Shown piece by piece: positions 7,427 to 8,229 of a DNA stretch of 9,449 nt (the first letter of the stretch is position 1; each line of letters begins with the position of its first letter). The position numbers and the translations under genes were made by a program. The stretch is taken from the IMG/VR virus record IMGVR_UViG_2718218100_000013. One strand, given 5' to 3'. The notes beneath the pieces were generated by a model. The model was not told the origin of the DNA. It did no database searches and worked only from the letters and a program-made list of their open reading frames with translations. This DNA comes from a virus (Duplodnaviria > Heunggongvirae > Uroviricota > Caudoviricetes).

Positions 7427-7459
7427 GTGTGATATCACACTACCAGCACGTGATATCAC
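7427..7459. promoter_or_regulatory. Two copies of the palindrome GTGATATCAC (the first extended to 14 bp), centres 21 bp apart; operator-like
   Basis: Perfect palindromes at 7427-7440 and 7450-7459. The second overlaps the cargo gene stop codon. They sit between the cargo gene and alpA. Confidence 0.45.
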
Positions 7460-8229
7460 TTTTTACGTTTTTGTTGAGATTCACGCCCCAAATACTTTTG
7501 CCATGTCTGCCAATGTGTTTTTGGAAATTCTATCCCTCTGGATGCAGCTATAGAATCAATTAAATCTGCTATTTTAGGTAATGATTCCGTGTCCAGGTCT
7601 ACATCACCCATTTCTGGAATAAGTTTAATTAAAGAGTAAATAACCTCATTCCTTTTTGACGATGCTTTTGGGCTATCTTCTGTTATCTTCGGGAAGTCTC
7701 CCGTATTTTTTATATTATCTAAATCACTAGCCATCACACACAAATAGTTAACATCAAATTCATAACCACCCTTACAAAAAACATACATGAGATTATCATC
7801 ACCATACTTATTCGTAAGATGAGAACATTTTATATATTGTCTCATGCTAAATTCGACATCAGCAAAAACATATGCCGGAGTATAATAAAACCCTGATAAG
7901 CTGCTAACATAATAACATTTGATAGAATTCCCTACAGGACCAATAATGGCACTATCTAAAAATTCAGTGTCACCAGTTAAACCAACTGTAAAATTACTTC
8001 CAAAAACAGCAGATTCATCATTGAAAGGATATTTTATTAATTCTTCCTCATTACAACCATTGATAAAATGACATAATGAAAAATTGAATTTTTTAGCATC
8101 AATTTTTGGTATATATACAGAAATATTAAGAGCACCTATATATGCGTAATGATAAAGATCTTTTATTGCACAGCCTAACTTTTCTGCCGCTTCAGGTAAC
8201 GGATAATAGAGTCTTTTAGGTAATTTCAT
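7456..8229 (-). CDS. Hypothetical cargo protein, 257 aa, AT-rich, translationally coupled to the integrase; family unknown
   Basis: ATG overlaps the integrase stop (ATGA at 8226-8229). Sampled 60-nt blocks give roughly 27-40 percent GC against about 45-55 percent in the flanking genes. I recognise no catalytic or family motif. Confidence 0.8.
   Translation of the reverse strand: MKLPKRLYYPLPEAAEKLGCAIKDLYHYAYIGALNISVYIPKIDAKKFNFSLCHFINGCNEEELIKYPFNDESAVFGSNFTVGLTGDTEFLDSAIIGPVGNSIKCYYVSSLSGFYYTPAYVFADVEFSMRQYIKCSHLTNKYGDDNLMYVFCKGGYEFDVNYLCVMASDLDNIKNTGDFPKITEDSPKASSKRNEVIYSLIKLIPEMGDVDLDTESLPKIADLIDSIAASRGIEFPKTHWQTWQKYLGRESQQKRKK

Follow-up and report, generated by a model that had tools for sequence, protein, structure and literature searches.

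In the phage-inducible chromosomal islands (PICIs) of Gram-negative bacteria, alpA is the master activator: it is required for induction and activates its own promoter (PMC6092414). A helper-phage factor switches it on; work on this inducer was described in 2018 as ongoing, and these islands have no known global repressor (PMC6092414). In the literature searched we found no later identification of the helper-phage inducer, no described gene between the integrase gene (int) and alpA, and no described regulator of the alpA promoter (PalpA). Here we analyse a 9,449-nucleotide stretch of viral DNA (IMG/VR record IMGVR_UViG_2718218100_000013, hereafter the window) which carries, between int and alpA, a gene for an uncharacterised protein of 257 amino acids (aa). 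The comparisons below indicate that this gene is an intrinsic PICI component and not cargo. That it encodes a transcription factor controlling PalpA, intrinsic to a sub-lineage of enterobacterial PICIs and with a middle domain that may sense a signal, is a reading to which we give about an even chance.

The window is a Gram-negative PICI of ~9.4 kb, with int, alpA, an Icd-like gene, DUF4222, a D5-type primase, TerS and a short capsid gene on one strand. It has int at one end, co-directional alpA, replicase and packaging genes, a small size and its own attachment (att) site, and it is without lysis or tail genes; an identical island in E. coli 2014C-3061 is flanked by clpS and yljB/cspD. P4-like satellites are marked by the capsid-hijacking genes psu, delta and sid, and have their defence hotspot between psu and int. 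An earlier note on this DNA, made from its sequence alone, had drawn a comparison with P4-like satellites, but psu, delta and sid were found neither among the scanned open reading frames (ORFs) nor in the RefSeq annotation of the island, and the gene in question lies between int and alpA. The three genes at the centre of the analysis are:

7456-8229, minus strand: the 257-aa gene, with an ATG start, of an uncharacterised Enterobacterales PICI family
8226-9449, minus strand: int, a 407-aa tyrosine integrase of P4 type with an arm-binding domain (Pfam Phage_integrase, E 1.6e-17; Arm-DNA-bind_3, E 2.1e-16)
7140-7364, minus strand: alpA, 74 aa (Pfam Phage_AlpA, E 3.4e-16), the presumed target of the module

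The 257-aa ORF is a real, undescribed gene, as the earlier note had supposed. Its product has homologues with E-values down to 1e-172. An exhaustive profile search of representatives at 50% identity returned 399 sequences with E<=1e-3, 54 of them with E<=1e-30, while a word-indexed search gave 19 clusters, and 43 with the profile; all of these clusters are from Enterobacterales and annotated as 'hypothetical'. Searches of Pfam (cut-off E<=0.1), NCBIfam and PDB sequences with the protein gave no match, a scan of genome contigs (one genome per species) with a protein pattern was likewise empty, and PHROGs yielded only an N-terminal match of unknown function. Of 5426 complete E. coli genomes, 84 have some version of the gene, whereas a related int or alpA is present in 1199. 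The allele of the window occurs in 47, mostly of serotypes O157:H7, O145:H28, O103:H2 and O121, and some E. coli genomes hold two copies of the gene.

Genomic context is conserved to a degree that is hard to reconcile with cargo. The order int, gene, ~90 nt, alpA is kept in all ~34 loci examined, from Escherichia, Klebsiella-type satellites, Pantoea, Rahnella, Serratia, Providencia and metagenomic contigs, with identities down to 22-27% for the protein and ~49% for Int. It holds across att sites (clpS/cspD, rcnR/yehA, yhdJ/acrS and others) and across replication modules (D5 primase, RepA helicase, DUF927). The int stop codon TGA overlaps the start codon of the gene as ATGA on the minus strand ('tcat' at 8226-8229 on the plus strand), and 14 of 15 loci retain a start/stop overlap of this kind (ATGA or TAATG), which bears out the translational coupling to int proposed in the earlier note. 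Related islands that lack the gene, among them the prototype EcCICFT073, have in its place a non-coding int-alpA gap of 365-419 bp with no ORF (eight of eight sampled). A cargo hotspot holds many unrelated gene sets between the same flanks; in this modest sample from E. coli and IMG/VR, the slot is either empty or occupied by this one family. Base composition tells the same story. The lower GC content of the gene is real (0.323, against 0.486 for int and 0.459 for alpA), but it recurs in every locus, even where protein identity falls to 27% (0.32-0.46 for the gene, 0.44-0.55 for int), and the gap in gene-less islands is itself AT-rich (GC 0.31-0.37). AT-richness is thus a trait of the interval and of the family and not a sign of recent import. 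With the slot empty or holding this one family, and with low GC shared throughout, the main supports fall for the view, put forward in the earlier note, that the gene was acquired horizontally into a variable cargo slot as a defence function.

Alignment of the family divides the protein into three parts, conserved at both ends and hypervariable between:

8095-8229, minus strand: N-terminal domain, residues 1-45, a winged helix of Xis/MerR/AlpA type; mean pairwise identity 44%
7690-8094, minus strand: middle domain, residues 46-180, beta-rich and hypervariable, 109-146 aa long in the family; mean pairwise identity 20%
7459-7674, minus strand: C-terminal helical domain with basic tail, residues 186-257, of type A, ending in ...TWQKYLGRESQQKRKK; identity 47%

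A disordered linker joins the middle domain to the C-terminal domain, and the lowest GC of the gene falls in the part that encodes the middle domain. A helix-turn-helix (HTH)-like segment near the N-terminus had been suspected in the earlier note; it proves to be a winged helix-turn-helix (wHTH) of the MerR/Xis-type fold, whose best structural matches are excisionases, or recombination directionality factors (RDFs): Pukovnik Xis, RdfS and an AlpA-family excisionase. By fold it thus belongs with the Xis/AlpA/HTH_17 proteins, although the 257-aa protein reaches no Pfam threshold; among 41 family members HTH_17 is matched in 3, at best with E 0.0026. The search for remote homology and structure suggested in the earlier note was in this way productive for the N-terminal domain only; the other two of the three domains are without recognisable relatives, and the C-terminal domain has no recognisable DNA-binding fold.

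The domains have not evolved in step. Among E. coli alleles the C-terminal domains are 94-95% identical while the middle domains are 13-48% identical, and the window shares 94% DNA identity with one such locus (L005) from about codon 186 through alpA, so that the C-terminal domain, the palindromes described below and alpA appear to be inherited as one block. Disrupted copies and C-terminal fragments of the gene are also found, still adjoining the palindromes and alpA (L023 1519-2243; proteins P0050, P0053, P0081 and P0082), which suggests that this block is kept while the rest of the gene decays.

The short interval between the gene and alpA contains the following elements:

7450-7459, no strand: palindrome 1, GTGATATCAC, which includes the TGA stop of the gene; centre at about -61.5 from the putative alpA transcription start
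7429-7438, no strand: palindrome 2, GTGATATCAC, non-coding, exactly 21 bp from palindrome 1; centre at about -40.5
7400-7405, minus strand: -10-like hexamer TAGAAT, read from the sequence and abutting the hairpin; a putative promoter element
7372-7399, minus strand: RNA stem-loop, an 8+2 bp hairpin directly upstream of alpA, whose 3' arm includes the Shine-Dalgarno sequence GAGGA (7374-7378)
7365-7371, minus strand: U7 tract, which makes the stem-loop an intrinsic terminator in this island

Palindrome 1 is invariant or nearly so in all loci whose C-terminal domain is, like that of the window, of type A, enclosing the TGA stop in each of them, and its distance to the alpA ATG is constant at ~93-96 nt. 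The two palindromes and their exact 21-bp spacing are conserved as a footprint, with a spacer that is not conserved in sequence. No further copy of the motif occurs in the window, where chance alone would give 0.2 matches. Both the palindrome pair and a stable hairpin before alpA are present at every locus with the gene, and in none of the eight islands without it. As each palindrome is self-palindromic in two unrelated sequence classes, a site for a dimeric protein is a better explanation than an RNA stem. That the pair is a mere RNA hairpin is also unlikely given that central-base variants are not consistently compensatory (L012 vs L021). No -35 element was matched 16-19 bp upstream of TAGAAT, and an A/T-rich element, nAnAAT or TTAAAT, stands at the -10-like position in all loci.

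In a reverse search of genome contigs, most palindrome pairs outside satellites were coding repeats (GGT GAT ATC AC, read as G-D-I-T in heptad repeats). The same GTGATATCAC-N11-GTGATATCAC arrangement also occurs in Trabulsiella guamensis (L032 2869-2899, identical to L065 2165-2195 of IMGVR_UViG_2588253800_000018), in a prophage-like region ~30 bp after a 296-aa ORF of ORF6N/Rha/Bro-like antirepressor type, a locus at which the hidden Markov model of the family found no member. This pair may belong to another regulator with the same operator or may indicate a link to helper phages.

The hairpin is supported both by its stability (fold z-score -4.8, with none of 200 shuffles folding as well) and by covariation. 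In our alignment of the element (A4), 94.6% of stem positions pair, six of the eight pairs show compensatory changes, none of 500 shuffles reaches the score, and slid registers of the stem pair at <=50%. G-U pairs place it on the sense strand of alpA. With its U7 tract it forms the terminator that the earlier note had placed after the gene; a simple terminator scan missed it because of an internal loop. Only about half of the loci have a strong U-tract; termination is therefore probably a local feature, masking of the ribosome-binding site (RBS) being the conserved role. An in-frame ATG at the start of the hairpin was considered as the true alpA start and rejected: it has no Shine-Dalgarno sequence, neither the window nor L052 contains it, and in L014 a stop codon comes after it. 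An Rfam scan of the spacer gave sub-threshold chance matches only. The hairpin loop (window 7380-7391; A4 columns 70-81) carries a repeated GAAC...GAAC motif in most loci (CGAACnnnAAnGAACG), and the E. coli type has the motif in inverse form, GTTCGGCAACGTTC. Since its sequence is conserved beyond what the stem needs, the loop is a candidate binding site for a protein, which may be the N-terminal wHTH or AlpA.

The gene and the palindromes also change together. C-terminal domains fall into three types, ending in ...KGIE(F/L)PxTxxxTWxKYLGR (type A), ...GIKPPVSGKTLxxWLxDVELDYVEIS... (type B) and ...G(M/I)xxPSGKT(V/I)xxWLKxVDID... (type C). Type A loci (~23) always have GTGAWWTCAC, and loci of type B (six) and type C (four) always have palindromes of the GGAA(A/T)TTCC type, with a second copy, exact or degenerate, ~21 bp downstream. 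The type B sites lie inside the ORF and encode the protein tail LEISKSPMEISKK*. There is no exception to this correspondence in ~34 loci. Alignment with hhalign shows types A and B to be homologous over 228 columns, with divergence at the last helix. Three controls separate the C-terminal domain from its neighbours. Between L078, of type C, and the type A locus L017, identity is 92% for AlpA, with no difference through the HTH, and 89% for Int; L095-97, also of type C, have a hairpin almost identical to those of the type A loci L017 and L074; and E47, whose AlpA is 100% identical to that of this island over residues 12-74, is without palindromes. In these alignments the operator class tracks the C-terminal domain, and not AlpA, Int or the N-terminal wHTH. 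AlpA can accordingly be rejected as the reader of the palindromes, since islands with an identical or 92%-identical AlpA lack the sites or have the other class. The N-terminal wHTH is rejected as the determinant of operator specificity, its consensus being the same in both classes.

Taken together, these observations are consistent with the following model. A three-domain DNA-binding protein would be made together with the integrase, and its C-terminal helical domain, probably through the last helix and the basic tail, would recognise two dyad operators that lie two helical turns apart at the end of its own gene, centred at about -61 and -41 from an alpA promoter without a -35 element. Bound there, the protein would set the transcription of alpA, which launches excision, replication and packaging of the island. 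The stem-loop, here also a terminator, would mask the alpA RBS and so insulate alpA from read-through of int and the gene; transcripts driven by the -10-like element beside the stem, with their start inside its 5' arm, would lack the full arm and be translatable. By analogy with the divergent sensor parts of SaPI (Staphylococcus aureus pathogenicity island) Stl proteins, the input, for instance a helper-phage protein, is likely to be received by the hypervariable middle domain. As to the sign of regulation, activation is favoured by the geometry of the sites, which resembles class I/II activation, and by the missing -35; repression is favoured by co-expression with Int on entry and establishment. 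We suggest, more tentatively and as a minority expectation, that the family is the missing helper-phage-sensing switch of a Gram-negative PICI lineage, the middle domain binding a helper protein, and the exchangeable C-terminal domain reading matched operators and gating alpA.

Several points weigh against a transcription factor acting at PalpA. DNA binding by the 257-aa protein is itself a prediction from sequence, and the palindromes, at 10 bp, are shorter than the usual site of a classical HTH dimer. The -10-like element was not called in a scan for consensus promoters, and roughly half of the loci offer a poor -10 match (TTAAAT without A2). As the operators adjoin or overlap the C-terminal coding region, co-inheritance alone could give the association between the two, and the split between A and B/C may be a single ancient event. 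Finally, the gene is missing from most functional E. coli PICIs, the prototype EcCICFT073 among them, and therefore is not a universal switch.

The linkage argument leads directly to one alternative, which we regard as unlikely: that the palindromes and hairpin are a control region of alpA read by some other factor, such as a helper-phage or host regulator, with the 257-aa protein connected to them only physically. Linkage is unavoidable where operators abut or overlap the C-terminal coding region, that domain has no recognisable DNA-binding fold, a helper-phage factor not identified at publication does switch on alpA (PMC6092414), and the Trabulsiella prophage has the same palindrome pair beside an antirepressor-like gene without a family member. 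It leaves unexplained, however, why the sites occur only with the gene, why the C-terminal domain and operators are swapped as a unit into type A backgrounds (L078, L095-97) and why the sites encode the tail of the type B protein, and it leaves a conserved, basic-tailed protein with two HTH-like parts without a DNA target. Similarly doubtful is a role as partner of the integrase, in which an RDF or architectural protein with a Xis-like wHTH would steer integration or excision, kept stoichiometric with Int through translational coupling. The excisionase-like fold of the N-terminal domain and the start/stop overlap with int both fit this, and since the domain is conserved whatever the operator class, it must act on a separate target, for which Int and att DNA are candidates. 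Yet the palindromes lie ~2 kb from the int-proximal end of the island and nowhere else in it, AlpA-family proteins already fill the RDF/activator role (PMC6092414, PMC10111431), and most related PICIs integrate and excise without the gene. A part in recombination would in any case be compatible with a regulatory role, given that P4 Vis does both.

Less probable still, in our judgement, is the view of the earlier note that the gene came in by horizontal transfer, as an accessory or anti-phage function occupying a variable slot close to the integrase. It is true that satellites carry defence genes, that SaPI accessory genes can sit between int and stl (PMC6092414) and that a prim-fis hotspot is described in PICMI (phage-inducible chromosomal minimalist islands; PMC10803314). 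The absence of any known family leaves an undescribed defence function possible as far as homology goes, and a hypervariable middle domain is also typical of phage-sensing immune proteins. Against this, besides the content of the slot and the family-wide low GC, the gene has diverged in situ along with int and alpA from genus to genus and carries conserved operators for a neighbouring master regulator. Among the defence models of PADLOC-DB v2 the sole match is mad1 (E 0.015), limited to the 27 residues (8-34) of the HTH, and no effector or toxin domain is recognisable in the protein. With tblastn, phage records gave no homologue, and plasmid records a single weak N-terminal match of 41 residues. 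The anti-phage function suggested in the earlier note thus finds no backing in these searches. An equally slim chance goes to a version of the regulator model that would serve another biological end, inter-satellite immunity, in which a constitutive repressor would silence alpA of incoming or co-resident islands of the same class, classes A and B/C being immunity groups. The discrete classes of operator and C-terminal domain, co-expression of the protein with int, and the presence of two gene copies in some E. coli genomes would all fit; but immunity alone does not explain the hypervariable middle domain, exclusion between PICIs is a supposition only, and the missing -35 suggests a promoter in need of activation and not of repression. 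We therefore retain the alpA regulator as our working model; for the gene family as a whole, the sequence comparisons point most probably to satellite regulators of a new family, tied to the alpA switch.

Other parts of the island and its relatives deserve brief mention. One small ORF is encoded on the strand opposite to all other genes:

6826-7005, plus strand: YlcI/YnfO-family ORF, 59 aa, phrog_949

Its sequence pattern resembles that of a ribbon-helix-helix protein, and as it occurs in islands with and without the 257-aa gene it has no link to the palindromes. Towards the other end are an HK97-type capsid homologue (979-1902, minus strand) and a small terminase subunit (2065-2553, minus strand). 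The capsid protein is short, 307 aa, and matches the C-terminal part of capsid models only. Portal, protease and large terminase are absent from the window, a pattern typical of PICI packaging-redirection modules. The ~980 bp between the capsid gene and chromosomal clpS (window 1-978) hold no convincing ORF; the far attachment site of the island is expected there. Islands of the EcCICFT073 type (L008 ~2554-2620, L081, L083) have GACACAA/GACACA direct repeats in the last ~70 nt before alpA, with neither palindromes nor a stable hairpin, and these repeats may be AlpA or inducer sites of islands with an empty slot.

How Gram-negative PICIs sense their helper phages is an open question, and the locus supplies a testable candidate, made up of a protein family with its probable operators and an RNA structure by which alpA would be insulated. 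The model makes a specific prediction: replacing type A residues 186-257 with a type B C-terminal domain (e.g. that of P0180) should shift preference to GGAAATTTCC. Should the family prove to be a helper-sensing switch, it would add a new kind of master regulator to those known from satellites, and the AlpA-only circuitry of EcCICFT073 would be one of at least two solutions. The gene is carried by Shiga-toxin-producing E. coli lineages (O157:H7, O145:H28, O103:H2 and O121), in which interplay between satellites and prophages affects gene transfer. There is also a more general lesson, namely that an AT-rich gene beside an integrase need not be imported defence cargo.

Among described regulators, resemblance is spread over several systems. 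The AlpA, Vis and Xis winged-helix proteins (Pfam Phage_AlpA, HTH_17; MerR-like fold) are single-domain proteins of 55-80 aa, whereas the 257-aa protein has two more domains, falls below every Pfam threshold and has a wHTH that does not track operator class. One-component MerR-type regulators share an N-terminal MerR/Xis-type wHTH followed by a variable, non-DNA-binding domain that could bind an effector, and apparent action at a promoter with a defective -35 context. They differ in having a dimerisation coiled coil, which the 257-aa protein lacks, and in binding between the -35 and -10 of promoters with 19-bp spacers, compared with two sites here at about -41 and -61; nor do they have the extra C-terminal domain that covaries with the operator. 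Repressor and operator arrays of the phage CI type are similar in their tandem dyad sites at helical-repeat spacing beside the regulator's own gene, and in discrete specificity classes of protein and operator exchanged by recombination. Their sites are of 14-17 bp and not 10 bp, and the sites here overlap the 3' end of the gene and not its promoter; the 257-aa protein has neither an HTH_3 nor a peptidase S24 domain, and there is no sign of SOS control.

The Stl/Rpr regulators of SaPIs and Gram-positive PICIs offer a parallel in circuit terms. Their genes, too, are neighbours of int in a phage satellite and sit where its lytic-type programme is controlled, which Stl/Rpr does through operators that it binds until released by a helper-phage protein. 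They are modular proteins in which a conserved part binds DNA and the remainder diverges strongly, as predicted for the 257-aa protein; in both cases allelic diversity could match different helper phages. There are also differences. No sequence or structural homology between the 257-aa protein and Stl was found, its putative target is the activator gene alpA, and int, gene and alpA are co-directional, whereas stl is divergent from the operon it represses. The gene is, moreover, found in a minority of Gram-negative PICIs, as its distribution among E. coli genomes illustrates. By analogy, it is possible that the 257-aa protein is a functional counterpart of the Stl/Rpr switch.

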